Shown: positions 4,223 through 30,343, counted from the first letter of the stretch. The stretch is DNA of 32,000 nt from Candidatus Lokiarchaeum ossiferum (GCA_025839675.1 CP104013.1:540001-572000); one strand, 5' to 3'. Numbers and translations are program-made. The notes: generated by a model from the sequence alone, not told the origin.

Positions 4223-4231
4223 TTGAATTAT

Positions 4232-12208: not shown

Positions 12209-12229
12209 AACTTTGAGAGGAAGGAAAAA

Positions 12230-12448: not shown

Positions 12449-12688
12449 GGTGGAGCTACGACATTTACAATCGAAATTCCTATAATGAATTCTCCAAACT
12501 CACAACAGGATTCTGAAAATCGTTGTATATGTTGAAGAATTGTAAAAAAATAACGCTTTAATATTATTTAGTTCATCTTTTCTTGAGATTTGTTCATTTA
12601 TTTATTGACTACGAAGAAAAATTGATTATCTTCTTTGATGAATGTCAAAAATCAAAATTTTTTTATATTTCATTGAAAAGAAGATATT

Positions 12689-13537: not shown

Positions 13538-14072
13538 AGATCTGTAAAAGTTTATGGTTTTTTTTATGTCTTGAAAATCAACAAGGAAAGTATTGATCAT
13601 ACAGTTTCAACCGTTCATTTTCACTTTTATCATTTTGGTTTTTTTTTAAATGTAGTTGTGCATTCACTCCGGTTGGTGTCTGTTTCAGTAATAATGATCG
13701 AATTCTAGTATCTAACAAACCATGCATAATCACAGTCTATTAATGGTATCAATATCTAAATTTTCGAGTTTTCTGGAGAATGGTGGTTAAATTTGTAGTC
13801 TTTCAATACATCATGATGAACATTTCCCATATATTGTTCGTACTTCTTTAGAAAGGATTCATTTTTAATTACTCTAATATAAACAAAGTATATATTTTGT
13901 AAATTTAATCATAAGGAATTAAGAAGTTTTTTATGGAGACAATAACAAGTTTTAAAAAAGAAACAGACTGAATCTTTACTTTCATTTGTAAGACAAAGAA
14001 AAATAAACATTCAAAATAGAGGTTATTAAAATTAATAGTAAATCAATTCCCGATTTTAGTATTGGTGAGATA

Positions 14073-16952
14073 GTGACTGCCAGACAGCGTCTTTGGCGGA
14101 TAGATCAAATCCATTTTGATGAAAACCAAGAATTCTATTATTACTCAGTAAGTAATGTTTCAGGGGTACCTTCTAATGAAGTACTCTTTCCTAGCATTGA
14201 ATCGATTAAAAAAAGTGAAATACCTCCTCCCGCAAAAGATAAATTAGGTTCTCCTCGATATCAACAACTCCTACTACAAGCACTCCGATTAGATTTAATT
14301 TATGGCACAACTTCTTTTATCAGCCTTCAAAATTCAAAAGTAATCCCCATTTCATATCAAATGGTTCCTGTTCTCATGGCGCTGAATATGAAAAAGGTGC
14401 GTTTACTTTTAGCCGATGATGTAGGTCTTGGTAAAACCGTAGAAACGGGACTTATTTTACAGGAATTATTAGGACGGAAACGAATTAATCGTGTGCTTTT
14501 TGTAACTCCGGCGAATCTTCGGGAGCAATGGCAAACTATTCTTCGTAATTTCTTTGGAATAGATGCCGTTATTATGTCTCGTCGTAATCGACGTCATCTG
14601 GAATCGGAATTATTAGTAGGAGGTAGTCCTTGGGGATACTACAATTTTGTGATTACATCTGTAGATTATGCCAAACAACTTGATGTACGCAGCGAAATAA
14701 TGCAATTTAATTGGGATATGGTAGTAATGGATGAAGCCCATAACATTATGATGCCACACGGAGGGGTAGATGATGTTGATAATAAAAACATTAAAAAAAG
14801 TTATTTATTTGCCCGTCAATTGACCGAAAAATATCCTCACCTTTTACTATTAACCGCGACTCCTCATAATGGCTATAAAGATTCATATACAAGCTTATTG
14901 AAGATGGTTAATCCCAATATTATTGAAGAGGTTGATACCGAAATTGAGATTGACAAAGATTTGGCAATTAACCATGTCTGCCAACGTCGAAGACATGATG
15001 TGGAACAATGGATCGGGGATCGCTATGAAAAAAGTCCATTTCCAGAACGCGATTCTGATGAGATTTTCATCACTCCTTCAGACCAATTCCACCATACTAT
15101 GGAAAAACTCTCTAAATTTGCGAATTATGTTATGAATTACGTAAATAAACTCACCACTGAAGATAATCAACGCAGTTATTGGACAATCTTACACTTTTTC
15201 AAACGTGCAATCAGTTCACCGGAAGCATTAATATGTTCTATTGATAATCGAAATGATGAAATAGATAAAAAATTAAATGAAAAACATCAAGCGATTGAAA
15301 ATTTAACACAGTTCCTTTCGATAGAAGAAGCCGGGCAATCAGTATTAGATGGTGCAGAAACCGATCGAATTTCGGAGGAAGAACGAGATATTCGAAACGA
15401 TCGAATTGTTTTAGCACAATCAATGGATTTATTATCCCAAGAAAAGGGTTTATTACTTGAGGTACAGGTAGAAGCGGAGAAATTAAAGAAAAAAGACAGA
15501 AAAGTGGATGAACTTATCAATGAAATTATTCCTAATTTATTAAAGAATTCCAAAAAAGTCATTCTATTCACCCGATATATCGACACGTTGAAATATATTC
15601 ACCAAAATCTCAAAGAAACCATAGATAGCGGATCGTTGCGATATAAAGGAATGGATCTCTTTTATGTGCATGGGCAACTCCCATCTCAAAAACGTATGGA
15701 AATTTATGACGATTTCTTAAAAAATCCTGCAGCGATTTTAATCTCCACGGATTGTATGGCAGAAGGGATTGATTTGCAATTTTCTGCCAATCAAATCATC
15801 AACTATGAATTGACCTGGAATCCGAACCGGCTTGAACAAAGGAATGGACGGGTGGATCGATTCGGACAACCGGAACCAAAGGTGTTCATCCGCACCTTGA
15901 TCATGAAAGACACGATTGAAATGGATATATTAGAATTACTTGTTAAAAAAGCTCAGAATATTAAAGAAGAATATGGATTTGTCCCCGGGTTTTTCGGAGA
16001 TCCAAAGGATATAATTGATCGCTTGACGAAAAGACGGAAAGAAAAACTAAAACCACAAGCAACTTTGGATAGCTATTTGAAATTAACTCCTAGAATAATG
16101 GATGATTTGGTCTCGACTTTCTACAATAAAGAAAATCTGGAAGAAATTCTGAAAGATTCATTTTACGGTCATAATAATATTGATTTACAAGAGATTGAAC
16201 ATCGGATGCAGATGAGTCAAGAAAAAATCGGTTCAAGCGCCACGATATTTGCATTCTTAAAATCTTCAGTGCAACTCTATAAAGGGAATCTAACTCAAGC
16301 TAAAGAAAACGAACATATTTTTGAGGTGCAATTACCACCCGAAATACTACATGATCTCAATGTAGAGGTGGAGGGCCCAATTCGGGTGACACAAAATATG
16401 AATCTTGGTGCTACACGAAAAGATGTTGATGCTTTGAGCTTAAAAAATGCTTTAATTGCTGGATTAATTGAAAAGGTAAAAAATGAAGCTTTTATTGAAG
16501 AAAAACAATTTTACGGTCGAACTGCAGCATTTACGTCTACACATGCCGAAACGGTAAAAGCAATATATCATCTGAAAATCCGGTATTATATAAACACTGA
16601 TCCACCGAGTATCACTGAAGAGATTACCACATTGGGTATAGATTTATTTTCTGAAGATATCTTAACCGAAAAGTCTATCAATCAAATAATCTCCGGTGAA
16701 ATGAATAATGCGGGGAAACCTGATGCATTTGTATTAAAACATATTGCCAAAGCATTAGAAAATACTGATCTGGAAATAAAATTTGAAGATCTTGCAAATC
16801 GACGAAAACAAGAATTGATTAATGAGCGTACTGATTTGATCCAACGATTACAGGAACAGGGTTTGACTGCAGATTTGCAGGGGATTTCAGATGTTAAAGT
16901 TGTGGGCACAGATCTTCTCACGATCGCTATAATCTATCCTCAAGGAGATTAA
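14073..16952 (+). CDS. drmD: SNF2-family helicase (DISARM DrmD-like)
   Basis: Motif I 'LLADDVGLGKTVETG' (nt 14425-14439). Motif II 'VVMDEAHN' (14730-14741). Motif III 'LLLTATPHNG'. Motif V 'STDCMAEGIDLQ'. Motif VI 'WNPNRLEQRNGRVDRFGQ' (~15838-15870). GTG 14073 is the first canonical start. The frame is open upstream to nt 14007 and encodes a plausible N-terminus ('SIPDFSIGEIVTARQRLWRI'), so the start is uncertain. Confidence 0.85.
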   Translation: MTARQRLWRIDQIHFDENQEFYYYSVSNVSGVPSNEVLFPSIESIKKSEIPPPAKDKLGSPRYQQLLLQALRLDLIYGTTSFISLQNSKVIPISYQMVPVLMALNMKKVRLLLADDVGLGKTVETGLILQELLGRKRINRVLFVTPANLREQWQTILRNFFGIDAVIMSRRNRRHLESELLVGGSPWGYYNFVITSVDYAKQLDVRSEIMQFNWDMVVMDEAHNIMMPHGGVDDVDNKNIKKSYLFARQLTEKYPHLLLLTATPHNGYKDSYTSLLKMVNPNIIEEVDTEIEIDKDLAINHVCQRRRHDVEQWIGDRYEKSPFPERDSDEIFITPSDQFHHTMEKLSKFANYVMNYVNKLTTEDNQRSYWTILHFFKRAISSPEALICSIDNRNDEIDKKLNEKHQAIENLTQFLSIEEAGQSVLDGAETDRISEEERDIRNDRIVLAQSMDLLSQEKGLLLEVQVEAEKLKKKDRKVDELINEIIPNLLKNSKKVILFTRYIDTLKYIHQNLKETIDSGSLRYKGMDLFYVHGQLPSQKRMEIYDDFLKNPAAILISTDCMAEGIDLQFSANQIINYELTWNPNRLEQRNGRVDRFGQPEPKVFIRTLIMKDTIEMDILELLVKKAQNIKEEYGFVPGFFGDPKDIIDRLTKRRKEKLKPQATLDSYLKLTPRIMDDLVSTFYNKENLEEILKDSFYGHNNIDLQEIEHRMQMSQEKIGSSATIFAFLKSSVQLYKGNLTQAKENEHIFEVQLPPEILHDLNVEVEGPIRVTQNMNLGATRKDVDALSLKNALIAGLIEKVKNEAFIEEKQFYGRTAAFTSTHAETVKAIYHLKIRYYINTDPPSITEEITTLGIDLFSEDILTEKSINQIISGEMNNAGKPDAFVLKHIAKALENTDLEIKFEDLANRRKQELINERTDLIQRLQEQGLTADLQGISDVKVVGTDLLTIAIIYPQGD
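16943..16947 (+). promoter_or_regulatory. Shine-Dalgarno AGGAG for the first methyltransferase gene
   Basis: AGGAG lies inside the last codons of the SNF2 gene, 11 nt before ATG 16959. Confidence 0.5.
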
Positions 16953-16958
16953 AGTTAG

Positions 16959-18803
16959 ATGGCATCACAAGCAAAATTATTACGAAATATTACCACTAAT
17001 GGAGGACTATTTACCGAAAATATTTTACTGAAATTACGGGATCGTCCCAATTCTAAGAATATTGGCAAAATAACTTATTTTTATTTTCCAGAAGAGATAG
17101 AAGAGATTCAAAAAACTGGAAATCCACCACAAACTCTCGATTCTCTTGAGATAAAGCAAAAACGGGAAAAGCTGAAATCCTTACAATCTTCTATTTTTAA
17201 TTGGGGACAACGTAAGTGGGAAGAAACATATCCTGATTTGGAATTAAATAAATTGGAAGATCCAGACATAGAAACAAAATGGTTGCTTCCTTTATTAGAA
17301 CAGATCGGTTATGAACTTGAGCCTTTTGACCGATCTTCTGATGATGGGACTGATACAGGGGTGTTAGGTGATTTTCAAATCAAATATCAAACAACAAATC
17401 CATCTATCCAATTGTTTTTTCATTTTGTTTGCCCTAATGATGATTTAGATAAAAAAATAAAAACAAATCCCAAACAACTTTCACATCATGATATTTGCCA
17501 GCAATATGTGAACTATCATCCAGATGTGAAATGGCTTATTCTTTCTAATGGTACTCAATTACGTCTCCTCTCTACATATTATTACTCATATTCTAAAGGT
17601 TATTTGGAGTTCAATCTAAAAGATATTTTTGGAGGAGATCTTCAGGAATTTTTAGTATTTTTTAATATATTGCATCCTTCTCGGTTTATAAAAATCGAAC
17701 CGGATAAACATTCACTTATTGAAGATTTTCAAGCAGAATCACAGGAAGAAGGTGTAAAAGTAGGAAATAATCTTCGAGATAATGTGCATAATGCAATCGA
17801 AACTCTAGGGAATCAGCTTATCCAACAAAATAACGAATTATATACAAATATTAAAAATGAAAAGATCAATTTACAAGAGTATTACGCCGAATTACTGCGA
17901 ATCATATACCGGATCATTTTCATTTTATATGCGGAGCAAAGAAATATGTTGCCCGGATCCGGAACGTTATATTTCAAAAATTTTTCCTTATCTTCCTTTC
18001 GGATGCTGGCAGAAAAACCAATTAAAAACGATTCCCAATCGGATTTATGGCAAAAACTTTTTGTTACTTTTCAACTAGTGAGAGATGGCAATAGTTTTAT
18101 GGGAATACCTTGTTTTAATGGAATCTTATTTGATAATACCAATTTGTCTATTTTATTTCCAGATGGTAAAGAAAAAGGTATTATATATTCAGTTTCAAAT
18201 GATATTACATTAGGGATCATCCGACTACTTACTACAGCCCAATTTGGAAACATTCGCCAACGCATCAATTTTATAGAAATTTCAGAGGAAGAAATTGGAG
18301 CTATTTATGAATCATTGCTTGAATATCGCCCAATATTTGATAAAAGAGGAAATTTTAATTTGGAATACGAATCTAATGAAAGGAAAGGTACCGGAACCTA
18401 TTATACTCCAAAAAATATAATTGATATCTTTATTAAAAATACGATAGAACCAAAAATTCGATTTATATTAGATGAACATGCTGGAAATCCACAGATACAG
18501 GAAAATGAAATAAGAAAATTAAAAATATGTGATCCTGCTTGTGGTAGTGGCACATTTCTTCTTTCAGTATTAGATTCTATGGGTGAACATTTAGCCAAAA
18601 TTCGTAGTCCAAATTCCTATCCAACTGAAATAGAATTAAGAAATGCACGACGTGAAATCTTACAACATTGCATTTATGGTGTCGATAAAAATCAACTTGC
18701 AGTGGAATTGTGTAAAATTTCTCTTTGGTTACGGGCATGTGTTAAGGATAAACCTTTGAATTTTCTCGATAATCATATTAAATGTGGAGATTCACTACTA
18801 GGT
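16959..18803 (+). repeat. Copy 1 of a ~1.85-kb diverged direct repeat (shared N-terminal half of the two methyltransferase genes)
   Basis: Aligns codon-for-codon with 20657-22503, from 'KLLRNITT.GGLFTENILL' to 'DNHIKCG.SL.G'. Long identical peptide runs are present (e.g. YYAELLRIIYRIIFILYAEQRNMLPGSGTLYFKNFSLSSFRM) despite many synonymous nucleotide differences. Confidence 0.85.
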
Positions 18804-20642
18804 ATTTTAGAAAAGAAAGAAAATTTAATGATTGAACCTACAAATTATAAAAATCTAAAGTGTAATCCTAATATCAAAAGGAAATTGATTCAACAATTAA
18901 AAAATGAGGTAAATTCTTTTAAAAAATCTAAAAATAAAATAGTACCTTTAACGAAATTCCTTGATTCTAATCAAATGGTTATATTCGACATAAAAAAATA
19001 TGAAAATATCAATAGTTTACCAGAAGATACAAAAGAAGATATTATTCTGAAAATGAGTAAATATAATCACTTACATGATGATCTTAATTTCAAAAAACTA
19101 AAACTAATATCAGATACGTGGATTTCGAGTTTTTTATGGTCAATTGATAAAAACATTAAGAGTATTGCAGATTTTTCTTATCCAAATAATATTTTGCTTG
19201 AAGAAATTAAATTAGGAAAAATATATAAGAGAAATAATTCTGAAGACACTTCTCAAATTAGTAAAATTCAAAAAATGGCAAAAAAAGAGAAGTTCTTTCA
19301 TTGGTATTTGGAATTTCCTGAAATTTTTAATAAACCTAACAAAGGCTTTGATTTTATTTTATCAAATCCACCATATGTCGAATCTCGTGGAATACCTGAC
19401 TATTATTGGAATTGGTTACGACTTCACTACAAGAGTTCATATAAAAAGTTTGATCTCTCGGTTGTTTTTCTCGAAAGGATCGTTCAGTTATTGAAACCTA
19501 ATGGAAAAGCAGCTATAATAACTTCAAATAAATGGTTAGTTGCAGATTATGGTTTGAAAATAAGAGAAATATATTTAAAAGAAACTAAAATTGAATCTAT
19601 TTATGACATCTCCCATTTAAATGTATTTTCTGAAGCCGATACTTATCCTATTATCATATTTGTTACTAAACCAGAATTAATTTCAAAGATTGAAGGAAAA
19701 GATACTTACTTATTCAAGCCTTCATCATTTAAAGAATTGTGGAATAATGATTATAAAAAAGAAAAATATGCGATCTCTCAAGGTTTTTTTGAAAGATTTC
19801 CTAATATTATATTTCCAACTACTATAGAACCTAAAAACATTATGTTATTAACCCACATTTGGAATTTACTTCCAAAATTTGCTTTTCTTCTTGGTGGACT
19901 AAATAGTCCATATGTTCTGAAAAAAGGAATACATACAGGCAATATAAAAGAAAAATTAATCTTAAAAAATCCATCTGTTATTCATGATTCGTTTAAGAAA
20001 TTAATTACAAGCCGAGAAAAAGTGGACAGATATCATTTTTCTTGGGAAGGATATTACGTTAATTATGATCCGAGTATTATTAAAAAGGAAAATGGAGAAT
20101 ATGGTAGCTTAAGAGAAAAATGGATATTTGAAAGTAATCCAAAAATTTTCATTAAATTATTTGGGAAGCGCATACAAGCGGCTTTAGATTCTGAAAAATA
20201 TTATGCTAATAATTCTATTATTATAGTTGTAAAAAACAATAATGAATCTAAAGAAAACTCAGATGAAATATTATCCATAAATAATGAATTTTATTATCTT
20301 ATAGGCATATTGAATTCTGATTTGATTTCAGTATTTTACAAAATAATATTTCATCATACTCATGTTCGAGGAGATTTTCTCCAATATTATATCAAAGATT
20401 TGGAAAATATTCCAATTATAAAGCCATCCACAGAAAATATTGAAACTGTTATTAAAATTGGAAAAATTGCAAAAAAGTTAATTAAATTATATATTACTGT
20501 AGAGATTAATAAAGATAAAATCCAAATCTTAGAAGATGAGTTGAATAATTTAATACATATTTTGTATAAGTTAGAACAATTAAATTTGGGTTCATCATGG
20601 AATGAATTAAAAAATCAATTCCTAGATTATATTGATTTTTAG
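16959..20642 (+). CDS. drmMI: N6-adenine DNA methyltransferase, Eco57I/type IIG-like, NPPY type (DISARM DrmMI-like), paralogue 1
   Basis: 1227 aa. SAM motif I 'KICDPACGSGTFLL' (nt 18531-18551). 'FFHWYLEFPEIF'. Catalytic motif IV 'ILSNPPYVESRG' (N-P-P-Y at 19365-19376). 'LLKPNGKAAIITSNKWL'. TaqI-C-like specificity signature 'YYLIGILNSDLISVFY'. The N-terminal ~610 aa are paralogous to the next ORF. Confidence 0.85.
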   Translation: MASQAKLLRNITTNGGLFTENILLKLRDRPNSKNIGKITYFYFPEEIEEIQKTGNPPQTLDSLEIKQKREKLKSLQSSIFNWGQRKWEETYPDLELNKLEDPDIETKWLLPLLEQIGYELEPFDRSSDDGTDTGVLGDFQIKYQTTNPSIQLFFHFVCPNDDLDKKIKTNPKQLSHHDICQQYVNYHPDVKWLILSNGTQLRLLSTYYYSYSKGYLEFNLKDIFGGDLQEFLVFFNILHPSRFIKIEPDKHSLIEDFQAESQEEGVKVGNNLRDNVHNAIETLGNQLIQQNNELYTNIKNEKINLQEYYAELLRIIYRIIFILYAEQRNMLPGSGTLYFKNFSLSSFRMLAEKPIKNDSQSDLWQKLFVTFQLVRDGNSFMGIPCFNGILFDNTNLSILFPDGKEKGIIYSVSNDITLGIIRLLTTAQFGNIRQRINFIEISEEEIGAIYESLLEYRPIFDKRGNFNLEYESNERKGTGTYYTPKNIIDIFIKNTIEPKIRFILDEHAGNPQIQENEIRKLKICDPACGSGTFLLSVLDSMGEHLAKIRSPNSYPTEIELRNARREILQHCIYGVDKNQLAVELCKISLWLRACVKDKPLNFLDNHIKCGDSLLGILEKKENLMIEPTNYKNLKCNPNIKRKLIQQLKNEVNSFKKSKNKIVPLTKFLDSNQMVIFDIKKYENINSLPEDTKEDIILKMSKYNHLHDDLNFKKLKLISDTWISSFLWSIDKNIKSIADFSYPNNILLEEIKLGKIYKRNNSEDTSQISKIQKMAKKEKFFHWYLEFPEIFNKPNKGFDFILSNPPYVESRGIPDYYWNWLRLHYKSSYKKFDLSVVFLERIVQLLKPNGKAAIITSNKWLVADYGLKIREIYLKETKIESIYDISHLNVFSEADTYPIIIFVTKPELISKIEGKDTYLFKPSSFKELWNNDYKKEKYAISQGFFERFPNIIFPTTIEPKNIMLLTHIWNLLPKFAFLLGGLNSPYVLKKGIHTGNIKEKLILKNPSVIHDSFKKLITSREKVDRYHFSWEGYYVNYDPSIIKKENGEYGSLREKWIFESNPKIFIKLFGKRIQAALDSEKYYANNSIIIVVKNNNESKENSDEILSINNEFYYLIGILNSDLISVFYKIIFHHTHVRGDFLQYYIKDLENIPIIKPSTENIETVIKIGKIAKKLIKLYITVEINKDKIQILEDELNNLIHILYKLEQLNLGSSWNELKNQFLDYIDF

Positions 20643-20645
20643 GAG
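20641..20645 (+). promoter_or_regulatory. Shine-Dalgarno AGGAG for the second methyltransferase gene
   Basis: AGGAG overlaps the TAG stop of paralogue 1 (20640-20642) and lies 11 nt before ATG 20657. Confidence 0.5.
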
Positions 20646-20656
20646 TTAACAAATCA

Positions 20657-22503: not shown

Positions 22504-24757
22504 TGGAAAAAACCCTGAAAGTTTATTAATTTCAGATAAAAATTTTAAGGCTTTGAAAGGAAATAAACAAACAGGAATTGAATCTGAAAATAAGAAATTA
22601 TGGAATGAAATTAAAAAACAAGTTCAGGATGAATTAAAAAATCTAAAGAAAACAAAAGCAAAACCTGGAACTTTGACAAAATTTCTCCCTGGACAAGAAC
22701 TAAAGTTGGATATTAAAAAATTTCAAGAAATCAGTAATATGACTGAAAATTCAATTGAAGAAATAAATCTGAAAAAAAAAAAATATACTGAATGTTTTAA
22801 CCGAGAGATCTATAAATCTCTAAAATATTATGCAGATGCATGGACGGCCAGTTTTTTTTGGCCATTAGAAGAGAAAAATGTTAGATTTATTGATTATAAA
22901 TATCCTAATAATACTTTATTAAATGATCTGAAAAATGGACGTATTATTAGCAAAAGTCAAAAAATATTAGAGAATATTTCTGAAATTTCTAAGCAATATC
23001 AATTTTTCCATTGGTATTTAGAATTTCCTGAAGTTTTTGATAAAAAAAAGCAAGGATTTGATTTAATTTTAGGAAACCCACCATGGGATGTTATTGAATT
23101 CAAAGAAAATGAATTTTTTATTGGAAAAGATTTGGAAATAACTCAAGCAGGAAATCAATCTAAACGCAGAGAATTGATTAAATCTCGCAAAAATACTAAT
23201 CATTCTTTGTGGAAAACATATAAGCAAAATTATAATCAATTATTGAAAGAAAAACACTTTTATTCTCAGTCTAATTTTTACTTTTACACTGCTAAAGGAA
23301 AAATGAATTTATATCCACTTTTTACTGAAAAATTTAGCAATTTACTAACAAAACAAGGAAGACTTGGTTATATTGTACCTTCAAAACTCATTACAAATTA
23401 TTTTATGCAAGATTTTTTTAACAAATTAGTCAATGAGAAGAAAATAATCTCTCTTTTTGATTTTAATAATAAAGAAAATCTTTTTAGAGGCATAAGTTCT
23501 CAGCAGAAATTTTGCCTGATTTCTTTAGGAAATGTGTCGAAGGAATCTAAATTTATCCCAATGGCTTTTGAATTGGAAAAAATTGAAGAAATAAATCCTG
23601 TCTTAAATTTAATGGAATATTATAATTTAGAAGATATTTCAAATCAATTAAATCTTGATTCAAAACTTTTATTATTAGAGAGTAATGATTTTCAAACTTT
23701 TAATCCGAATACAAAAACATGTCCAATTTTCACTAACAATTTCACTTACAAAATTTTTAAGAAAGCATATAAGTATCCAATTTTAATTTTAAGAGATGAA
23801 TCAAATAATGAATTAAAAAATTGTTGTAATATCGAAATATCAACTATTTTTAATGCTGCTTCTGATTCAAATCTATTTATTGAGAAAAAAGATTTAGAAA
23901 AATTAAAAGTTGAATCAGAAAATAAATTATCCGGTGGAATATGGAAAGATGATAAAAATAAATATCTACCACTATACGCTGGAAAAATGGTATGGCAATA
24001 TGATCATAGATATCAAGGAATAATTAAAACAAAAGCAGCACAAAGAAATGAAAAATCTTTCGCAATTTCTGAGGAACAGAAGAAAAATATTCAATTTTAC
24101 AACATACCTGCATATTGGATCAAAGAAGAAGATTTTATGGCAAATCTTCCCAAAAAATGGAATAAAAAGTGGTTTTTTGCATTTAGAGATATAACAGGAT
24201 CAAAAAACGAGAGATCATTAGTCTGTTCGATAATTCCATTTTATCCAAGCAATCATACACTTCCAATTGTATACCAAAAGGAAGATAATGAACATAATGC
24301 GGAAAATCTTTGTATACTCATCGCTAATTTTAATACTCTTATTATGGATTACATCGCCCGTCAAAAGATATCCAGTCAACATATGAGTTTTTATGTAGTT
24401 GAACAATTACCTGTCATTCCTTTTGAAAAATATCCTACAAATATAAAAGCCCTGATAGTGAACAAAATCTTAAAATTATCTTATAATTCTCTAGATTTAG
24501 AAGAATTTGCCAAAGATTTAAATTTTACAGAAAATCCCTTTATTTGGAATGAAGAAATTAGACTTAAAATAAAATGTGAGATTGATGCAATTTATGCATT
24601 GTTATATAAAATTGAGCGAGATGAATTGGAAAAGATTATTGAAACATTTGATGTTTTAGAGAAAAAGGAATTAGATAAATATGGTTCTTTTAAAACTAAA
24701 AGTTTAATCTTAGATAATTTTGATAAATTTGCACAAAAATTGGAGTTGTTTGAATAA
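20657..24757 (+). CDS. drmMI: N6-adenine DNA methyltransferase, type IIG-like, NPPW type (DISARM DrmMI-like), paralogue 2 with a different catalytic/target-recognition half
   Basis: 1366 aa. Motif I 'KICDPACGGGTFLL' (nt 22229-22249). 'FFHWYLEFPEVF'. Motif IV 'ILGNPPWDVIEF' (N-P-P-W at 23075-23086). 'MNLYPLFTEKFSNLLTKQGRLGYIVPSKL'. The C-terminal ~650 aa ('ERSLVCSIIP', 'FYVVEQLPVIPF', 'CEIDAIYALLYKIERDELEKI') are unrelated to paralogue 1. The TAA stop abuts the next ATG (TAAATG at 24755-24760). Confidence 0.85.
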   Translation: MTSNAKLLRNITTSGGLFTENILLRLRDQPNSKNIGKATYFYSVKEIEEIKNTGKSPQTLDSLGIKQRQERLNSLRTTIFDWAQRKWEEIFPDMKLHKVIKSDIEKKWLLPLFEQIGYELEPFNQSSSEEFDTEVLGDFHIKYQPKIPKVQVYFHFVSPYDDLDQKVKSNPKQLSHHEICQQFVNYHPNVKWLILSNGTQLRLLSTYYYSYSKGYVEFNLQDIFGGDLQEFKVMFNMIHPSRFVGIESEKKLLIEDFQAESKEEGVKVGDNLRDNVHNAIEMLGNKLIQQNDELYKQTKQEKIDLQKYYAELLRIIYRIIFILYAEQRNMLPGSGTLYFKNFSLSSFRMMAEKPIKNDSQSDLWQKLFLTFQLVKNGNKKMGVPCFNGSLFDNTNLSILFPNGGKEGIKYIISNDILLRIIRLLTTAQIGNILQRINFIEISEEEIGAIYESLLDYFPVFSKRDQFKLPYQTTERKGTGSYYTPKSLIDILLKTTLKPLIDDTLANIGIDPFDQEKAILRIKICDPACGGGTFLLSALDFIGEKLAKIRKTDSSPTEDDLRHARRDVLQNCIYGVDKNSLAVELCKISLWLRACVKDKPLNYLDNHIKCGNSLIGFGKNPESLLISDKNFKALKGNKQTGIESENKKLWNEIKKQVQDELKNLKKTKAKPGTLTKFLPGQELKLDIKKFQEISNMTENSIEEINLKKKKYTECFNREIYKSLKYYADAWTASFFWPLEEKNVRFIDYKYPNNTLLNDLKNGRIISKSQKILENISEISKQYQFFHWYLEFPEVFDKKKQGFDLILGNPPWDVIEFKENEFFIGKDLEITQAGNQSKRRELIKSRKNTNHSLWKTYKQNYNQLLKEKHFYSQSNFYFYTAKGKMNLYPLFTEKFSNLLTKQGRLGYIVPSKLITNYFMQDFFNKLVNEKKIISLFDFNNKENLFRGISSQQKFCLISLGNVSKESKFIPMAFELEKIEEINPVLNLMEYYNLEDISNQLNLDSKLLLLESNDFQTFNPNTKTCPIFTNNFTYKIFKKAYKYPILILRDESNNELKNCCNIEISTIFNAASDSNLFIEKKDLEKLKVESENKLSGGIWKDDKNKYLPLYAGKMVWQYDHRYQGIIKTKAAQRNEKSFAISEEQKKNIQFYNIPAYWIKEEDFMANLPKKWNKKWFFAFRDITGSKNERSLVCSIIPFYPSNHTLPIVYQKEDNEHNAENLCILIANFNTLIMDYIARQKISSQHMSFYVVEQLPVIPFEKYPTNIKALIVNKILKLSYNSLDLEEFAKDLNFTENPFIWNEEIRLKIKCEIDAIYALLYKIERDELEKIIETFDVLEKKELDKYGSFKTKSLILDNFDKFAQKLELFE
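22772..22783 (+). repeat. A12 homopolymer (four AAA Lys codons) inside methyltransferase paralogue 2, upstream of the NPPW motif
   Basis: Read directly: ...aatctg aaaaaaaaaaaa tatact..., encoding 'NLKKKKYTE'. This is the longest mononucleotide run I noticed inside a coding region in the window. Confidence 0.9.
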
Positions 24758-27700
24758 ATGCCAGAACAATTAAAAAGACAAAAACCACAAAACATTTTTT
24801 TAATGGCCGATCGTCTACAAGAGACGTATGAACAATTTGTCCGTTCATTCCAATATTTTCAAAATGAGAAAATTCAAACGTGGGTGGACGATCAGATGGA
24901 AAAGCACGATCTACTTTTCCGAGATCCGTATATTGAATTGAATTTCCAATTTGAAAATGGAATTCCACTTGCAGAGATGGTCACCCAAAACTATATGCAT
25001 GCAAGAATCCCAGAAATCTTCAAAATTTCTCCCTACAAACACCAATCTCAAGCAATTACTCGGATTCTCAAAGAAAACCAAAATATTATCGTGTCCACGG
25101 GAACGGGCTCCGGAAAAAGCTTGTGTTATTGGATTCCTATTATCAATACATGTCTGGAAATGAAGCAGAAAGGATTAGACGGGATTAAAGCAATTGTTAT
25201 TTTCCCGATGAATGCCTTAGCCAATTCTCAATACAATGCATTGGTGGATACAATCCAAGATTATACGGATCTCAAAGTTGGGCGATATACAGGAGATACA
25301 GCATACTCACGGAAAGAAGGGGAGAAATTACTAGAAGAACGCGCCACACGAGAACCTTACAAATGTGAATATCTCTCCCGGCAAGAGATGCAAGATAACC
25401 CCCCCGATATTCTTATTACGAATTATGTAATGTTGGATCTCTTACTTATGCGGCATGATGATAAAAAACTCTTTCCCGGAAAACATGAAGGTCACCTCAA
25501 ATACCTCGTCTTAGATGAAATTCACACCTATAATGGAAATACGGGATCGGATGTAGCTTGTCTCGTTCGCCGATTGAAGGAAAAAACCAATACCATTGGA
25601 AAACTCCGCTGTATTGGCACTAGTGCAACCATTCAGGATAATAAAAAAGACACCGATCCAAATCAACCTTCTTCGATTATCGAATTTGCAGAAAAAATAT
25701 TTGGAGAACCCTTCACCAACAATAGTTTAATTACAGCAACGCACATCAAATCAGATGTTACATTCGATAAAATCGTGAAACTCCCAAAAACCATTAAAAT
25801 TGATACTGAGGAACTGAATGCCTTTGATGGAACCCTCCCTACAACGATTCCAATCGCAAATAAATTACTCGCGAGCCCTCTCACTTCAGAGGAAGTGGGC
25901 GATGAATTTCAATTAGGTGTTAAATTTGAATATCATGAAACGATTTTATTCCTCCAAGATCAACTCAAAGAAATCGCTCAATCACTTAAAGATCTTGCCA
26001 CCACCTACCGATCCAAATTACGACCGGGAGAATCCGAAGCAAAATGTTTACAAGAGTTAAAAGCCGCATTTTTAGTGGGAACCGTCGGAAAAATTACCAA
26101 AAACGAAGAAAAACGCCCATTAATTGTGCCAAAACTGCATCTCTTCTTCTCCCGAGGGCACGATATTCACTCCAGTCTCACCCAACTCGGCCCTTATCCC
26201 ACGATAGATGGGAATGTCATTTGCCACGAAACCGAATACAAGACCTACCCGATGTATTTCTGTCGGAATTGTGGGCATGAATTTTATAGTGTGATCATAT
26301 CCGAAGATAATATGGTCTATCCGCGCAATTTAGATGAAGAACAACCCGGAAAACTTTTCTATCTCACCCCTATCACTGATGCGAATAATAATTGGGAGGT
26401 TCCCGAACAATGGATCAATACAAAAGGCGATGTAAAGAAGAGTTACCAACCTGCGCAACCCACACGAACATTATACTGTCCGAAACATAACGTGATCGAA
26501 AGCACGTGCGGATGTCCTAAAGTATTGGAAGTCTGGCAGATTGCCTATCCGATCCAACTCTGTCCTTCATGTAATATTTTTTATACCAAACGCAAAGGTG
26601 AATATGGAAAACTCTTTTCGTTCAACTCCACCGGACGGAGTTCTTCCACCGATGTCTTAACGGCTAAGCTCTTGAGAAATTTATCACGAGACCAAAAAAA
26701 GTTAATTGTTTTTACCGATAACCGTCAAGATACGTCATTGCAAGCAGAACATTTGAATGAATTTCAACGACGCTTGAATTTTCGCCAGATCATGCTCGGA
26801 GTTCTCCAAAAAATTCACACACATGGCGATCGGATCACGGATCTCGAAATTGGGAATTATATCTTCGCATATCTTTCCGAAACAGGAAAACTCCCCGAGT
26901 ACAGTATCGAAGAAGCGGATGAGTTTAGTTCGGCTCCCCCGCCCATTATTGAATATAAAAGTTTTCTCACATATTTGGCAGTATCCGATATTATGCAGTC
27001 CAATTATTTCCTCGACCTCAATCTGGATAAATTGGGAATTTTAAAAATCGAGTACGATATGTTGCATAAACTCGCCGGACACTCTCAATTAACCAATCAT
27101 TTTATCTTTAAACGATATAACCCCACTCAGAATTATGATTATATGCGAGGATTGCTGGATATATTCAGGTGGAATGGGGCAATTGCAAACGGGAATTTTA
27201 GCAAATCGGGGAGTAAATTCAAACAATGGGAACGAAAAATTAAGGCAGACCTCCTCTTCGATATTAACAAAAATCATTTTACCAATTTTGGCTATACATT
27301 TGAGATACCGAAAAATCCCAAGACAAATAAACGCAGTCGGGTGCTCTATGATAACTACGCAGTATCATTGAAAAGTTTGACTGGTAATAACTCCGTAATT
27401 CTTAATTGGACCCAAAAATTCTTCAAAGTGGAAAAAGAGGATGCGGAAAAAATTATCATTGAAATGATTCAAATTCTCGAAAAAACCAAATTTATCCAAA
27501 AGATCTGGGCGGATCGTCCGAAAACCGATTTTTACCAAATCGCAGAAGGCAAAATCCTTTTCAAATTAAACGCAGAAGAGCAATTTCAGCAATGTCCCAA
27601 ATGCCATAAAGTGTTTTATTTTGATGAATTTTCCGAGTGTGCGTGGCGGAATTGTCCGACCCTCAAATCTCATATTGTTGATCATGACAATTATTACTAC

Positions 27701-30109
27701 AAACTCTACCAAACAGAAAATGATCCCTATTCGGAAATCCATGCGAAAGAGCATAGTGCTCAAGTGGATGGGAAAATGCGGGAAGAGTTTGAAGATAATT
27801 TCAAAGCAACAAAGAAAGAAAGCTTAAACGTATTGGTGTGCACCCCCACCATGGAATTGGGGATAGATATCGGTGACCTGTCCGCGATTATTATGCGGAA
27901 TGTACCCCCCGATCCCAGTCGCTATGCCCAACGAGCCGGAAGGGCAGGAAGAAAAAATCAACCCTCAATTATTGTGGTATTCTGTGGGACCGGATATGCC
28001 AAAGGACCGCATGATCAATACTTTTATCAGCGCCCGGATCTCATAGTTTCTGGAAAGATCGAACCACCTAATTTTCTCTTGGATAATCGGAAACTGATTC
28101 AACGGCATTTGCATTCGATGATCTTTGAACATATGGATACTAAAATTTCGCAAAAATTAGGGGCGAACTGGGATCTGCAGAATGATAACACTCAACCACC
28201 ATTTCCGATGCATGAAGGTTTGAAAAACCAAATCGATCGGGAAATCCTCCGTAAAAAAGCAGTCTTACTTTCTCAAATCCAATTGGCCTTTACAGCAGAA
28301 ATTGGGAAATTTGATAAATGGTTCAATGAAGATTTTATCCTTAGTATTATCTCCCAGTTTCGATCCCGGCTCGATAAAATTTTCGATGAATTTCGGGATG
28401 ATTACTACATACTCTTAGATGAACTTGATTTTCTGCATTCAAAGACGCGAACGGGAGATACTTCCTATAAGAAAGATCGCAAATATTCCGCGCTAAAATT
28501 TAAGTTGAAAAAGATTACCGAAGGTAATCTACCGTATACAACCTTTTCCTATCTCTCCAATTATGGGTTTATTCCGAACTATGGATTCTCGAGTTCTGCA
28601 TCCATGGTGTCCATGTATAACCTGAGTAAAGATAAAACTTTTGATTTATGGCGTTCTTCTGTCATTGCCATCCGGGAATATGCTCCTTATAATCAGATTT
28701 ATTTCCTCGGCAATAAATACCAAGTGACTAAAGCAGAGGTGAGAACCACTAAAGGCAAAATTGAAGTGCAGGATATGTATATCTGCCCGTATTGTGAAGA
28801 GATCTTGATGGATACACCCCAGCAAAAAGTAAAGTGTCTTTCGAATTGTCTGAGTTGTCAAAACCCAATTGATAATGGACAATTCAAGTATGCCTTCGAG
28901 TTTCCGCACATGTCCTCAATCAATAAAGAACGAATTACCTGTGATGAAGAAGCACGGATGGTCAAAGGCTATGAAGTTTCCATGAACTACAAATGGACCA
29001 ATAAAGCGAAAGAATATCAAATTATCGAAACTAAGAATGATAACGCATTAGTGGAATTGTCCTATGAGCATAATGGGAAAATTTTCATTGTGAATAAGGG
29101 CGTGGTGAAAAGTGATAAAAACAACCCGAATGAATCTAATTTAGAACCCTTTTATTATTGTAGTGCCTGTGGGGCGTGGTTACATGAAACACAAGTGAAT
29201 ACTCACTTGGATAATTGTGAGCGAAATGGCACAAGTGAAAATCTCTATAATGATGGATATTGGCTCTTTGTCGAAGGGAATCATGATGTGTTAGAATTTA
29301 AGGTACCATTCATAGGACCAGTACATCCTTCTATTAAAGAAATTCTGACATTCTACACCACAATGAAAGAGACTATCACCCAATCAATCTTGATAACGTT
29401 CAATTTAGGGGAAAATGAAATCATGCGTTTCCTCCGACCTCAGCAAGGTACGGACAATTTTTCTATTGTAATCTTTGAGAAAGAAGAAGGTGGCACAGGA
29501 ATATTGAAATCGCTGCTGAATCCCGAAATTACACGGTTTGACCAGTTTATTAAAAATCTGAAACGAATTCTTCATGTGGAAAAATTAGTTCCTTATCAAG
29601 AAACTCGGGATGCGTGCCATAAAGCATGCTATAACTGTCTCTTAGGGTTCCGCAATCAATTTGAGCACGAGTATTTGGACCGGAAGAGTATCCTCCCAAT
29701 AATCACTCGGCTAGAACAAATCACTTTAGAAGCAAAGAAGAATGAATCAGAGAATGCTGAAGATCATTTCACTCAACTCTTGGACCAATGTGATTCAGAT
29801 CTCGAAAAACTGGTTTTAAAGGAAATTCAAAAACAAAACTTGCATTTTCCCACCGAAGCACAGAAAACCTATTTCCAAGGTGATACTCCCATAGTAACTG
29901 CCGATTTCTTCTATACACCCGAAACCTATATCTTTGTCGATGGCCCTCCTCATGAACAAGATCATGTGGAACTTGATGATAAAAACAAACGTGGAATATT
30001 AGAAAGTCATGGTAAAATCGTGATTGAAATGGATTTTTGTGATGGGCTATATAAACACCAGCCAGAATTAATTAAAAAAGAAGTGCAAAAGTTGAAACAA
30101 TATTTATAA
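24758..30109 (+). CDS. drmA: DEAD/DEAH-box helicase + DUF1998 (MrfA-type Zn-binding) + C-terminal Vsr/DUF559-like endonuclease; DISARM DrmA-DrmB fusion-like (1783 aa)
   Basis: Motif I 'VSTGTGSGKSLCY' (nt ~25097-25120). Motif II 'LVLDEIHTY' (25514-25525). Motif III 'GTSATI'. Motif V 'VCTPTMELGIDIGDL'. Motif VI 'RYAQRAGRAGR' (~27929-27952). Zn-ribbon-like CxxC clusters lie between motifs III and V ('FCRNCGHEF', 'LCPSCNIFY', 'CPKCHKVFYF..C..NCP'). DUF1998-type clusters: 'CPYCEE...CLSNCLSC' (from nt 28784) and 'ACHKACYNCLLGFRNQFEHEYLDR' (~29615-29690). C-terminus 'ADFFYTPETYIFVDGPPHEQDHVELDDKNKRGILESHGKIVIEM' (nt ~29900-30035) fits the DUF559/Vsr-like pattern aDF....iE/fVDG..H......D..R...L...G..V. 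Confidence 0.85.
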   Translation: MPEQLKRQKPQNIFLMADRLQETYEQFVRSFQYFQNEKIQTWVDDQMEKHDLLFRDPYIELNFQFENGIPLAEMVTQNYMHARIPEIFKISPYKHQSQAITRILKENQNIIVSTGTGSGKSLCYWIPIINTCLEMKQKGLDGIKAIVIFPMNALANSQYNALVDTIQDYTDLKVGRYTGDTAYSRKEGEKLLEERATREPYKCEYLSRQEMQDNPPDILITNYVMLDLLLMRHDDKKLFPGKHEGHLKYLVLDEIHTYNGNTGSDVACLVRRLKEKTNTIGKLRCIGTSATIQDNKKDTDPNQPSSIIEFAEKIFGEPFTNNSLITATHIKSDVTFDKIVKLPKTIKIDTEELNAFDGTLPTTIPIANKLLASPLTSEEVGDEFQLGVKFEYHETILFLQDQLKEIAQSLKDLATTYRSKLRPGESEAKCLQELKAAFLVGTVGKITKNEEKRPLIVPKLHLFFSRGHDIHSSLTQLGPYPTIDGNVICHETEYKTYPMYFCRNCGHEFYSVIISEDNMVYPRNLDEEQPGKLFYLTPITDANNNWEVPEQWINTKGDVKKSYQPAQPTRTLYCPKHNVIESTCGCPKVLEVWQIAYPIQLCPSCNIFYTKRKGEYGKLFSFNSTGRSSSTDVLTAKLLRNLSRDQKKLIVFTDNRQDTSLQAEHLNEFQRRLNFRQIMLGVLQKIHTHGDRITDLEIGNYIFAYLSETGKLPEYSIEEADEFSSAPPPIIEYKSFLTYLAVSDIMQSNYFLDLNLDKLGILKIEYDMLHKLAGHSQLTNHFIFKRYNPTQNYDYMRGLLDIFRWNGAIANGNFSKSGSKFKQWERKIKADLLFDINKNHFTNFGYTFEIPKNPKTNKRSRVLYDNYAVSLKSLTGNNSVILNWTQKFFKVEKEDAEKIIIEMIQILEKTKFIQKIWADRPKTDFYQIAEGKILFKLNAEEQFQQCPKCHKVFYFDEFSECAWRNCPTLKSHIVDHDNYYYKLYQTENDPYSEIHAKEHSAQVDGKMREEFEDNFKATKKESLNVLVCTPTMELGIDIGDLSAIIMRNVPPDPSRYAQRAGRAGRKNQPSIIVVFCGTGYAKGPHDQYFYQRPDLIVSGKIEPPNFLLDNRKLIQRHLHSMIFEHMDTKISQKLGANWDLQNDNTQPPFPMHEGLKNQIDREILRKKAVLLSQIQLAFTAEIGKFDKWFNEDFILSIISQFRSRLDKIFDEFRDDYYILLDELDFLHSKTRTGDTSYKKDRKYSALKFKLKKITEGNLPYTTFSYLSNYGFIPNYGFSSSASMVSMYNLSKDKTFDLWRSSVIAIREYAPYNQIYFLGNKYQVTKAEVRTTKGKIEVQDMYICPYCEEILMDTPQQKVKCLSNCLSCQNPIDNGQFKYAFEFPHMSSINKERITCDEEARMVKGYEVSMNYKWTNKAKEYQIIETKNDNALVELSYEHNGKIFIVNKGVVKSDKNNPNESNLEPFYYCSACGAWLHETQVNTHLDNCERNGTSENLYNDGYWLFVEGNHDVLEFKVPFIGPVHPSIKEILTFYTTMKETITQSILITFNLGENEIMRFLRPQQGTDNFSIVIFEKEEGGTGILKSLLNPEITRFDQFIKNLKRILHVEKLVPYQETRDACHKACYNCLLGFRNQFEHEYLDRKSILPIITRLEQITLEAKKNESENAEDHFTQLLDQCDSDLEKLVLKEIQKQNLHFPTEAQKTYFQGDTPIVTADFFYTPETYIFVDGPPHEQDHVELDDKNKRGILESHGKIVIEMDFCDGLYKHQPELIKKEVQKLKQYL

Positions 30110-30343
30110 TTAATCAAAATAAATGAACGGAATATGACTGATGAACGAATAATTTGGCAAGAATCTGCTTGAGATAAAGATCGAAATTATATTAATATCT
30201 GTTTAAAATATAATGTAATTTTAAATGGTCCGGGTCGATTTGGTCCTTGGCCAAAGTGTGAACCAGAACTTCGAGAATATGGAAGAGAAATAGGAATAGA
30301 TAAGGGTCGAAAGGTAGAAGATTTACGCAGATTCGCAGAACAG

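Follow-up and report, generated by a model that had tools for sequence, protein, structure and literature searches.

Class 1 DISARM, as defined by Ofir et al. 2018, comprises drmD, drmMI, drmA, drmB and drmC. A further system was named ARMADA in 2025 and is defined by a YprA-like helicase (ArmC), a BrxHII/RapA-like helicase (ArmA) and a PglX-like methyltransferase (ArmB) (PMC12458937). The gene order A-B-C is common in archaea, from which ARMADA Type II is absent, and the Vsr domain at the C-terminus of ArmC has been described as active (PMC12458937). Experimental support comes from two papers and concerns Type II only: in E. coli this type confers direct protection against phage without abortive infection, and this protection depends on every gene, on the ATPase motifs in ArmA and ArmC and on NPPW in ArmB. 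The ARMADA papers note a relationship of the system to DISARM class 1, but in the published YprA tree it groups with Druantia, apart from DISARM/Dpd (PMC12458937). A shared derived feature of this ARMADA/Druantia lineage is a set of inserts that separate RecA1 from RecA2 and are of BrxA-like, zinc-module beta-barrel and MarR-like type.

The locus described here is located on the chromosome of the Asgard archaeon Candidatus Lokiarchaeum ossiferum, strain B-35 (CP104013.1), and was analyzed within a window of 32,000 nucleotides, the whole stretch of DNA under study. ORF calling yielded four ORFs of 959, 1227, 1366 and 1783 aa, all on the plus strand, and we could reproduce the coordinates given in an initial annotation of this DNA: the ORFs are separated by 6, 14 and 0 nt, and at the TAAATG junction (24755-24760) the TAA of ORF3 at 24755-24757 directly precedes the ATG of ORF4 at 24758-24760. 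Reading frames of 959-1783 aa in DNA of ~30% GC cannot be due to chance, and the catalytic motifs are intact in all four proteins. The gene order is armA-armB1-armB2-armC, preceded by an intergenic region:

13538-14072, plus strand: upstream intergenic region of 535 nt, AT-rich on reading of the sequence, with ORFs of at most 51 aa
14073-16952, plus strand: armA, 959 aa, GTG start, SNF2/RapA-like (BrxHII/DrmD-like) helicase, UYP44193.1 (profile matches, motifs)
16959-20642, plus strand: armB1, 1227 aa, extra PglX/DrmMI-like N6-adenine methyltransferase, UYP44194.1 (profiles, motifs)
20657-24757, plus strand: armB2, 1366 aa, canonical ArmB methyltransferase, UYP44195.1 (profiles, motifs)
24758-30109, plus strand: armC, 1783 aa, YprA-family (DruE-like) helicase-nuclease, UYP44196.1, NEF87_000481 (profiles, accession match)

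The promoter of the operon presumably lies in the 535-nt region 5' of armA, where a GGTGA motif resembling a ribosome-binding site is found 4 nt upstream of the GTG start codon. An in-frame TGA at 30170 prompted us to consider an alternative genetic code; as table 11 leaves all four giant ORFs intact, this idea was dropped. Scans for tRNAs and Rfam families returned no matches. The gene just downstream of armC encodes a 301-aa HSDR_N-like protein; as a fifth component it was excluded because it is missing next to ArmC in every relative examined. Note that GenBank labels the proteins of the operon as RapA, SrmB and 'hypothetical'. The surroundings contain genes of defence and mobile-element type, encoding a NERD-NTPase, an FRG-UDG (PDC-S15) and an ArdC-like protein, with HNH and SRA-HNH genes downstream.

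All in all, we are confident that the locus represents an ARMADA Type I defence operon (armA-armB1-armB2-armC) in the archaeal gene order. An exact-sequence accession look-up matched ORF4 to UYP44196.1 (NEF87_000481), a protein for which Table S1 of Bell et al. 2025 (PMC12458937, bioRxiv 10.1101/2025.09.15.676423) has the entry 'ARMADA Type I helicase'. The assignment to Type I rests on this entry, on the single Vsr domain of ArmC and on the absence of ArmD: no UvrD-like/ArmD gene is found within ~6 kb downstream of armC, which fits Type I. The system is thus already known, its architecture having been named in 2025 (PMC12458937). The initial annotation had offered a choice between an undescribed DISARM subtype, which is superseded by this name, and a related but distinct modification-dependent system, which fits. 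Its view of the four genes as a single, DISARM-related defence operon was correct.

ArmA is the BrxHII/RapA-like SNF2 helicase of the system, encoded 6 nt from the next gene, with a Walker A motif GLGKT at residue 118 and DEAH at residue 220. It matches the Pfam families SNF2-rel_dom (2.4e-17) and Helicase_C (7e-21), its best PDB match is RapA (about 3e-26), and the PADLOC models place DrmD (5.7e-103) ahead of BrxHII (2.3e-76). In NCBIfam, DISARM_DrmD scores 378.8 bits, below the cutoff of 610.

ArmC unites a helicase core with several further modules:

25025-25648, plus strand: RecA1 lobe, residues about 90-297 (Pfam DEAD 5.3e-26, residues 94-297)
25649-27733, plus strand: insertion between the RecA lobes, residues 298-992 (AF2 model, pLDDT 86.9)
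27734-28090, plus strand: RecA2 core, residues about 993-1111 (Pfam Helicase_C 5.8e-14, residues 993-1066)
28598-29677, plus strand: OB-CON-DUF1998 (DrmB/MrfA-like) module, residues about 1281-1640 (AF2 model, pLDDT 88.1)
29825-30106, plus strand: C-terminal Vsr/DUF559-type PD-(D/E)xK nuclease domain, residues about 1690-1783 (Foldseek)

Pfam assigns residues 1-297 and 993-1189 to the helicase core. Its Walker A motif (GSGKS, residue 117) and DEIH (residue 253) are invariant in the alignment of relatives, as is TPTMELGIDIG in RecA2. The insertion comprises helical and winged-helix-like domains as well as a beta-rich module in which CxxC pairs are conserved; its conserved cysteines are C502/C505, C602/C605 and C946/C949/C961/C966, and a Foldseek search returned nothing below E=0.9, the weak top matches being mostly winged helices of the Fur/MarR type. 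Neither a BrxA-like nor a MarR-like insert reached significance in this search. For the C-terminal model, Foldseek retrieved MrfA (6znp_A, 5.5e-9) and DrmB (7s9v_B, 3.8e-5), and zinc-type cysteine clusters are found at C1343/1346/1364/1367, C1468/1471 and C1620/1624/1627. ArmC itself gives only a weak match to DUF1998 (Pfam MZB; E=0.012, residues 1543-1628), but the domain is present in 12/12 aligned relatives and supported by the fold. The earlier identification of an SNF2 helicase, an Eco57I-like N6-adenine methyltransferase and a DEAD/DEAH helicase with DUF1998 is borne out, and DrmA-type and DrmB-type modules are indeed joined in one polypeptide with a fold that matches MrfA/DrmB. The two nuclease folds that had been proposed to take the place of DrmC reduce to one, a C-terminal Vsr/DUF559-type domain predicted to be active. 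It matches the Vsr-like I-Bth0305I (3r3p_A) with a probability of 1.00 and a target-normalised TM score of 0.65 over 101 columns, and D1716, D1728, H1732, D1741 and K1744 are conserved. DUF559 itself is matched in 3/12 ArmC relatives. A second nuclease fold was not detected by Foldseek in the models of residues 1190-1783, beyond Vsr, or 298-992.

These data bear directly on the proposal of a non-canonical class 1 DISARM, in which drmD, a duplicated drmMI and a fused drmA/drmB would be combined with other nucleases in the place of drmC. DrmD for ORF1 and DrmMI for ORF2 and ORF3 are the best PADLOC matches, the C-terminal module of ArmC matches DrmB, and the ARMADA papers themselves point to a relationship. 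Both the DrmD and DrmMI families are, however, common to ARMADA, and membership in class 1 was rejected because it fails for DrmA, DrmB and DrmC. ORF4 scores 3e-115 with DruE1 and 5.5e-105 with DruE3, as opposed to 3.8e-18 with DrmA; DISARM_DrmAL reaches 24.6 bits at a cutoff of 999, and DrmA does not appear among the best 60 PDB sequence matches. Neither a separate drmB nor a PLD gene occurs in the window, the downstream flank or the fetched Asgard loci; specifically, no PLD domain is present in window ORFs of at least 100 aa, in the flank or among the genes called in nine Asgard loci, so that the reported absence of the PLD nuclease DrmC holds. Together with the position of ARMADA in the YprA tree this makes class 1 DISARM highly improbable. 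Of the observations that the initial annotation had itself named as speaking against its call, two were made: the 1783-aa protein has a DruE-like profile, and the architecture already bears a name under which the protein is listed.

The affinity of ORF4 to DruE raises the question whether two systems are present, a Druantia-type DruE effector that by chance stands beside a module of SNF2 helicase and Type IIG/BREX-like methyltransferase to which it is unrelated. In PADLOC, ORF4 is matched best by DruE models, and the PDB profile search lists two helicases of ~2,000 aa, 9tu7 and 9wae, which we take to be probably DruE, ahead of MrfA. PADLOC v2, moreover, reportedly went no further than 'R-M system with putative DrmD component' or DMS in labelling the locus of this organism. 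A chance neighbourhood is nevertheless hardly credible, as the 0-nt TAAATG junction and the gaps of 6 and 14 nt indicate a single operon and the SNF2, methyltransferase and YprA genes form a conserved trio, arranged in one of two orders, in roughly 55-60 of 80 genome loci from bacteria and archaea. No neighbouring ORF in the window matches the partner models DruH, DruA-D or DruM/F/G, and Druantia membership was rejected because these genes are absent. Furthermore, Type III DruE carries PLD domains (PMC12458937), while ArmC carries Vsr.

The survey of homologues of the 1783-aa protein, which had been suggested earlier, revealed a conserved neighbourhood, with the order C-A-B in ~45 bacterial loci and A-B-C in ~8-10 archaeal or Bacteroidota loci and in 5 Asgard loci. 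The trio is patchily distributed over unrelated phyla. This distribution also argues against a housekeeping function in YprA/MrfA-type DNA repair or chromatin remodelling, for which one could invoke the repair helicase MrfA as a member of the YprA family, the non-defence roles of RapA-like SNF2 proteins and the GenBank annotations RapA and SrmB. ArmC falls into the defence branch of the published YprA tree (PMC12458937), the locus is set among defence-type and mobile-element-type genes, and the GC content of armC is unlike that of neighbouring genes. We therefore consider a housekeeping role the most remote of the readings discussed here.

A peculiarity of this ARMADA Type I operon is the pair of methyltransferases. 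Both ArmB1 and ArmB2 match PglX models and contain the motifs DPACGxG and NPP[YW], so that the ArmB component is present twice. ArmB1 is composed of an ArmB-type N-terminal domain, a SAM-binding half (DPACGSG, residue 525), NPPY (residue 803) and a TaqI_C target-recognition domain (residues 1020-1153). It matches Eco57I (7.1e-33), N6_Mtase (9.2e-20) and TaqI_C (1.2e-15) in Pfam, DrmMI in PADLOC (4.3e-91) and, in the PDB, CamA (7lni, 2.6e-15) and M.TaqI (about 1e-6). ArmB2 has DPACGGG at residue 525 and NPPW at 807, with Pfam matches to Eco57I (1.2e-23) and N6_Mtase (1.2e-10), DrmMI at 3.5e-86 in PADLOC and the NCBIfam model met_A_Alw26 (1.3e-13) at residues 1155-1342. The comparison divides armB1 into two parts:

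16959-19376, plus strand: armB1 residues 1-806, the region common with armB2 (BLASTP, identity matrix, sliding window)
19377-20639, plus strand: armB1 residues 807-1227, the C-terminal half, containing the TaqI_C domain and the remainder of the catalytic fold, which is of Eco57I/TaqI type

Over residues 1-806/810 the two proteins are 66% identical, with 78% identity in 1-460 and 52% in 461-806, and nucleotide identity in a sliding window ranges from 56 to 87%. After NPPY/NPPW they are unrelated (17% identity between the C-terminal halves), in agreement with the earlier claim of a duplicated methyltransferase with divergent specificity halves. The C-terminal half of ArmB2 is the type found in single-ArmB ARMADA loci, and NPPW is invariant across B2-type and single ArmB proteins. 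Across 80 genome loci the C-terminal half of ArmB1 has no ArmB match; where ArmB C-terminal halves of other loci give BLAST matches at all, these are always to the ArmB2 half, the ArmB1 half being matched by none. Gene conversion or a recent duplication was discarded as an explanation, as near-identical DNA tracts are absent and the best 50-codon window shows 87% nucleotide identity. A search of 16 ArmB sequences for a Type IIG-style nuclease hidden in the N-terminal domain found no conserved D...ExK triad, a weak negative as it is sequence-based. Given their unrelated recognition halves, the two enzymes probably methylate different motifs. The N-terminal domain of L. ossiferum ArmB1, on the other hand, is closer to its ArmB2 copy (78%) than to any orthologue, which suggests that both copies must fit the same partner.

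The duplication is not peculiar to one genome, since other Asgard contigs carry the same arrangement: the order ArmA-ArmB1(TaqI_C)-ArmB2-ArmC recurs completely in two Asgard metagenome loci (L091, L092) and up to the contig end in two more (L093, L094). These at least two complete and two contig-truncated loci represent a lower bound. In 80 other genome loci and in 5 Asgard relatives the pair is missing and there is a single ArmB. That so many loci manage with one enzyme, that the C-terminal half of ArmB1 is of a foreign, TaqI_C type and that loci with two methyltransferases are scattered over the ArmC tree could mean that ArmB1 does not work within the system, whether as a duplicate that is decaying or selfish or as an independent, orphan methyltransferase of Type II that inserted into the operon. 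We regard this as unlikely, with the same four-gene order in the metagenome loci and the tight spacing of 6 and 14 nt being retained. Six B1-type proteins were examined, one of them N-terminally truncated, and the SAM-binding motif DPxCGxG and NPPY are kept in 6/6, the ArmB-specific N-terminal domain mostly or wholly in 5/6 (82-98% of ArmB1 covered).

The main text of PMC12458937 makes no mention of such a tandem pair (0 occurrences of 'duplicat' or 'two methyltransferase'), and we regard the layout as a minor, undescribed sub-variant of a known system. A more far-reaching proposal, to which we attach only tentative belief, is that ArmA/ArmB1(NPPY, TaqI_C)/ArmB2(NPPW)/ArmC constitutes a distinct, undescribed and Asgard-only subtype of ARMADA Type I, in which both enzymes would be active on different motifs and both marks would be read by ArmA/ArmC. 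If this were true, self-marking at two motifs would render viral escape through one acquired methylation more difficult, and the similar N-terminal domains (78%) would allow ArmB1 and ArmB2 to dock on one partner.

A working scheme can be drawn up from the gene content, gene order, intact motifs, ArmC C-terminal module folds and family assignment that are established for the L. ossiferum locus. The two PglX-like N6-adenine methyltransferases would mark host DNA, and ArmA, as an SNF2/RapA-like translocase, would act jointly with ArmC to detect and destroy incoming DNA that lacks these marks; ArmC would do so as a helicase of the YprA family that bears a zinc-rich insertion, a canopy of OB-CON-DUF1998 and, at its C-terminus, the Vsr-type nuclease. 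Immunity would be direct and non-abortive. For this scheme we infer that ARMADA Type I is active, also in archaea, that self is marked by methylation, that the Vsr domain is the effector nuclease and that the second methyltransferase has a role. In BREX the methyltransferase motif of PglX is required for defence, as it is in E. coli ARMADA II. Loss of the methylase is lethal in a classical restriction-modification pair; armB deletion mutants of E. coli were obtained, so that ARMADA does not behave as such a pair. The main texts of the ARMADA papers do not report methylation-dependent discrimination of self and non-self ('methylation' has 0 occurrences).

For the most part the outcome is a correction to existing annotation: a locus already catalogued under ARMADA Type I still carries the labels RapA, SrmB and 'hypothetical' in GenBank. 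Ca. L. ossiferum is among very few cultivated Asgard archaea, and for a closely related strain a cultivated virus is now available, which would allow an archaeal system of ARMADA Type I to be studied in its native host or close to it. The methyltransferase pair, which recurs in tandem and combines a common N-terminal domain with recognition halves that are unrelated, amounts to a natural experiment on the coupling of modification and restriction in ARMADA.

Among the known systems, BREX shares with this locus the PglX-like ArmB and the BrxHII-like ArmA, but PglZ, BrxC, BrxA, BrxB and BrxL are absent here and the effector is the ArmC helicase-nuclease instead. Class 1 DISARM has the same SNF2 helicase and Eco57I-type N6A methyltransferase, which score best on the DrmD and DrmMI models, and DrmA and DrmB are homologous to the ArmC helicase and OB-CON-DUF1998 module; here, however, the latter two are fused, the helicase belongs to the Druantia/ARMADA branch and not to that of DrmA, and a fused Vsr domain stands in for the PLD protein DrmC. 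Druantia, in particular Type III (DruH-DruE), offers the sequence profile closest to ArmC and the same layout of RecA1, zinc-module insertion, RecA2, OB-CON-DUF1998 and C-terminal nuclease, but our locus lacks DruH, DruA-D and DruM/F/G, has Vsr rather than tandem PLD domains and is coupled to an SNF2 helicase and methyltransferases. ARMADA Type II (armABCD; E. coli NCTC 12900, ATCC 8739, EDL933 OI-172) agrees in its three protein families and the order armA-armB-armC, but adds ArmD, a RelE-GajB/UvrD helicase missing in L. ossiferum, and its ArmC frequently bears additional EEP and Vsr domains that are inactivated, where a single Vsr is found here. The closest match is ARMADA Type I, with its YprA/DruE-like helicase ending in a single C-terminal Vsr domain, its BrxHII/RapA-like SNF2 protein, its PglX-like methyltransferase and no ArmD, and the L. 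ossiferum locus departs from it in its two tandem methyltransferases, one of the NPPY/TaqI_C kind and one canonical with NPPW.

The four-ORF layout put forward in the initial annotation is borne out by the ORF calls, with gaps of 6, 14 and 0 nt between the co-directional frames and a TAAATG junction of the last two at 24755-24760. We name the genes after the components of ARMADA, a system named by Bell et al. (2025; PMC12458937) in their analysis of the YprA helicase family and composed of a DruE-like YprA helicase, ArmC, a BrxHII/RapA-like SNF2 helicase, ArmA, and a PglX-like methyltransferase, ArmB.

Genes of the operon
14073-16952, + strand: ORF1 (armA), 959 aa, GTG start
16959-20642, + strand: ORF2 (armB1), 1227 aa
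20657-24757, + strand: ORF3 (armB2), 1366 aa
24758-30109, + strand: ORF4 (armC), 1783 aa

A GGTGA motif lies 4 nt upstream of the GTG start of armA. Four ORFs of this length cannot have arisen by chance at approximately 30% GC, and catalytic motifs are intact throughout, with GLGKT and DEAH in ArmA, DPACGSG and NPPY in ArmB1, DPACGGG and NPPW in ArmB2, and GSGKS and DEIH in ArmC. The operon is compositionally mosaic. GC content is 35-36% in armA, 24-33% in the armB pair (17001-25000) and 37-42% in armC (25001-30000), at a window mean of about 30%. For the strain's DrmD-like gene, a 2026 preprint suggests that it came from bacteria.

As evidenced by the Pfam domains SNF2-rel_dom and Helicase_C, ORF1 is an SNF2 helicase. 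Its top PADLOC models are DrmD (5.7e-103) and BrxHII (2.3e-76), its score of 378.8 bits against NCBIfam DISARM_DrmD falls short of the 610-bit cutoff, and the nearest solved structure by sequence is RapA. ORF2 and ORF3 are Eco57I/N6_Mtase adenine methyltransferases with DrmMI as top PADLOC model (4.3e-91 and 3.5e-86, respectively), and PglX was also matched. ORF4 carries DEAD and Helicase_C domains and has DruE1 (3e-115) and DruE3 (5.5e-105) of Druantia as top PADLOC models, with DrmA only at 3.8e-18; against NCBIfam DISARM_DrmAL it reaches 24.6 bits, with a cutoff of 999. A PDB search with a profile of ORF4 and 11 homologues is led by 9tu7 (1.8e-88) and 9wae (3.5e-59), helicases of about 2,000 aa that, by their size and 2026 dates, are probably DruE. 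MrfA/YprA (6znp, 1.5e-33) comes next, and DrmA is absent among the top 60 matches. The PADLOC and profile results thus place the 1783-aa protein with DruE, the very outcome that the initial annotation had named as refuting its class-1-DISARM-like call.

Residues 1190-1783 of ArmC were modelled with AlphaFold2 from a 64-sequence alignment (pLDDT 88.1), and the model matched MrfA (6znp_A, 5.5e-9 over 403 columns) and DrmB (7s9v_B, 3.8e-5 over 407 columns) in Foldseek. The last 100 residues or so resemble the Vsr-like homing endonuclease I-Bth0305I (3r3p_A; probability 1.00, target-normalised TM 0.65), also cited as Vsr-domain template in PMC12458937. Residues D1716, D1728, H1732, D1741 and K1744 are invariant or almost so across homologues, which fits a nuclease that is predicted to be active. 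Pfam MZB (DUF1998) is weak in ArmC itself (E=0.012) and was found in 12 of 12 relatives. The insertion between the RecA domains, modelled as residues 298-992 (pLDDT 86.9), folds into domains of helical, beta-rich and winged-helix-like type and contains CxxC pairs that are conserved. It yielded nothing significant in Foldseek, the weak matches being mostly Fur or MarR regulators, so that BrxA-like and MarR-like inserts in ArmC are unconfirmed. No second nuclease fold was seen in either model, so that the two different nuclease folds initially claimed find no support. Additional nuclease-like domains are known from Type II ArmC.

The claim of a duplicated methyltransferase with divergent C-terminal halves stands. 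BLASTP aligns ArmB1 with ArmB2 over residues 1-806 at 66% identity and shows them to be unrelated past NPPY/NPPW. Identity falls from 78% across the N-terminal domain (1-460) to 52% across the SAM-binding half (461-806) and to 17% across the C-terminal half. At its C-terminal end ArmB1 has an Eco57I/TaqI-type catalytic half and a TaqI_C recognition domain, and the C-terminus of ArmB2 is of the canonical ArmB type. The N-terminal domains of the L. ossiferum pair are 78% alike, but at most 57% like those of any orthologue, which suggests that they have been homogenised, yet no DNA tract exceeds 87% identity.

The gene order of Type I is usually C-A-B, with A-B-C "in many archaea and cyanobacteria" (PMC12458937). 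We fetched 80 genome loci with ArmC relatives and identified their genes in BLAST comparisons with the proteins of the window. About 45 of them, chiefly bacterial, have the order C-A-B, and some 8-10 the order A-B-C (Methanogaster, Bathyarchaeota, Euryarchaeota, Bacteroidota). Two full-length ArmB genes occur in none of the 80, and wherever the C-terminal half of an ArmB had a BLAST match it was to the ArmB2 half, never to that of ArmB1. Five close Asgard relatives (ArmC 52-54% identical, with Promethearchaeum syntrophicum included at 35%) show A-B-C with a single ArmB. A homology search with ArmB1 found full-length TaqI_C-bearing relatives. The order ArmA-ArmB1(TaqI_C)-ArmB2-ArmC is complete in two Asgard loci (L091 and L092) and cut by the contig end in two others (L093 and L094); a fifth case is surmised only from two proteins whose contigs are given with identical length. 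NPPY is present in every B1-type protein, NPPW in every B2-type or single ArmB, and the SAM motif in all. In a neighbour-joining tree of Asgard ArmC, two-methyltransferase loci are scattered among those with one. The tandem pair is thus a recurrent sub-variant, found within this sample only in Asgard archaea.

Further genes accompany the Asgard loci. A 135-aa EVE-domain gene, a modified-base reader, sits between armB and armC in L088 (9531-9938), and a divergent McrBC pair precedes armA in L091 (1656-4917) and L093 (3328-6597). The single-methyltransferase locus L087 holds a separate 860-aa Eco57I/MmeI-type methyltransferase (21215-23797) about 6 kb downstream of armC, possibly an unlinked equivalent of the ArmB1 that elsewhere is encoded inside the operon.

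The L. ossiferum operon itself is surrounded by many genes of defence and mobile-element type, and a CBS-domain protein is also encoded upstream of it.

Neighbouring genes
592-4212, + strand: 1206-aa ResIII-type helicase, upstream of the operon
4217-6163, + strand: 648-aa protein with FRG and uracil-DNA-glycosylase-superfamily (UDG) domains, 4 nt after the ResIII-type helicase
6229-7293, - strand: 354-aa ArdC-like protein (ArdC-N and zincin, MPTase-PolyVal), on the opposite strand inside the island
7517-12208, + strand: 1563-aa protein with N-terminal NERD nuclease domain and P-loop (ABC/STAND-like) NTPase
12165-12485, + strand: 106-aa ORF overlapping the end of the NERD protein gene
30170-31249 including an open 5' stretch, + strand: 301-aa HSDR_N-like PD-(D/E)xK gene (precomputed Pfam DUF8426)

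The FRG-UDG protein matches PDC-S15, a candidate family of PADLOC, at about 1e-18 and may form a separate two-gene defence candidate with the ResIII-type helicase. ArdC-N and zincin domains typically occur in anti-restriction proteins that mobile elements encode. The NERD gene, with weak matches to the AbiLi and MADS models, is a candidate defence gene. The HSDR_N-like gene was considered as a component of the system, and as it is conserved downstream of ArmC in no relative we place it outside. Its frame is open for 57 codons 5' of the ATG, up to a TGA at 30170, and this stretch contains no ATG, GTG or TTG; the start codon may be non-canonical or mis-called, or the 5' end may have decayed. The defence island extends past the window end. 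In the downstream flank (L001 18191-20037), about 3-5 kb from ArmC, follow a 279-aa HNH protein and a 291-aa SAD_SRA/HNH_2 protein of the modified-cytosine-dependent nuclease type. Neither tRNA genes nor Rfam families were found in the window.

With regard to function, E. coli ARMADA Type II protects directly and non-abortively and depends on all genes, on the NPPW of ArmB and on the Walker motifs in both ArmA and ArmC; in EHEC, protection was lost upon single-gene deletions, armB included. By our reading, ArmB1 and ArmB2 would methylate adenines in two distinct host motifs, and unmarked invading DNA would be found and cleaved by ArmA, as a translocase, and ArmC, as a helicase that bears the Vsr nuclease and a canopy of OB-CON-DUF1998 type. 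In the literature we found no demonstration of methylation as a self mark or of DNA cleavage by Vsr, nor of activity for any Type I or archaeal ARMADA.

The locus had been taken for a class-1-DISARM-like operon, perhaps an undescribed DISARM subtype or a distinct relative of DISARM that depends on modification. This reading is right in part. The system is related to DISARM, its DrmA/DrmB-type helicase is fused, and no PLD gene is found in the window or its flanks, but it is ARMADA Type I rather than class 1 DISARM. Neither is the type undescribed: the system already bears its name and the locus is catalogued, as ORF4, by exact-sequence match UYP44196.1 / NEF87_000481 of Candidatus Lokiarchaeum ossiferum B-35 (CP104013.1), is listed in PMC12458937. 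A preprint that labels an L. ossiferum locus, probably the armA-armC locus, does not use the name ARMADA. Type II always has the order A-B-C-D, in which ArmD is a RelE-GajB helicase, and does not occur in archaea (PMC12458937); behind ArmC, neither the window nor the downstream flank holds an ArmD-like gene. Bell et al. do not mention the tandem pair in their main text (PMC12458937), and an Asgard two-methyltransferase sub-variant of ARMADA Type I would be what is left as new, a modest novelty. DISARM employs a PLD nuclease, whereas in ARMADA its place is taken by the Vsr-type nuclease at the C-terminus of ArmC (PMC12458937).
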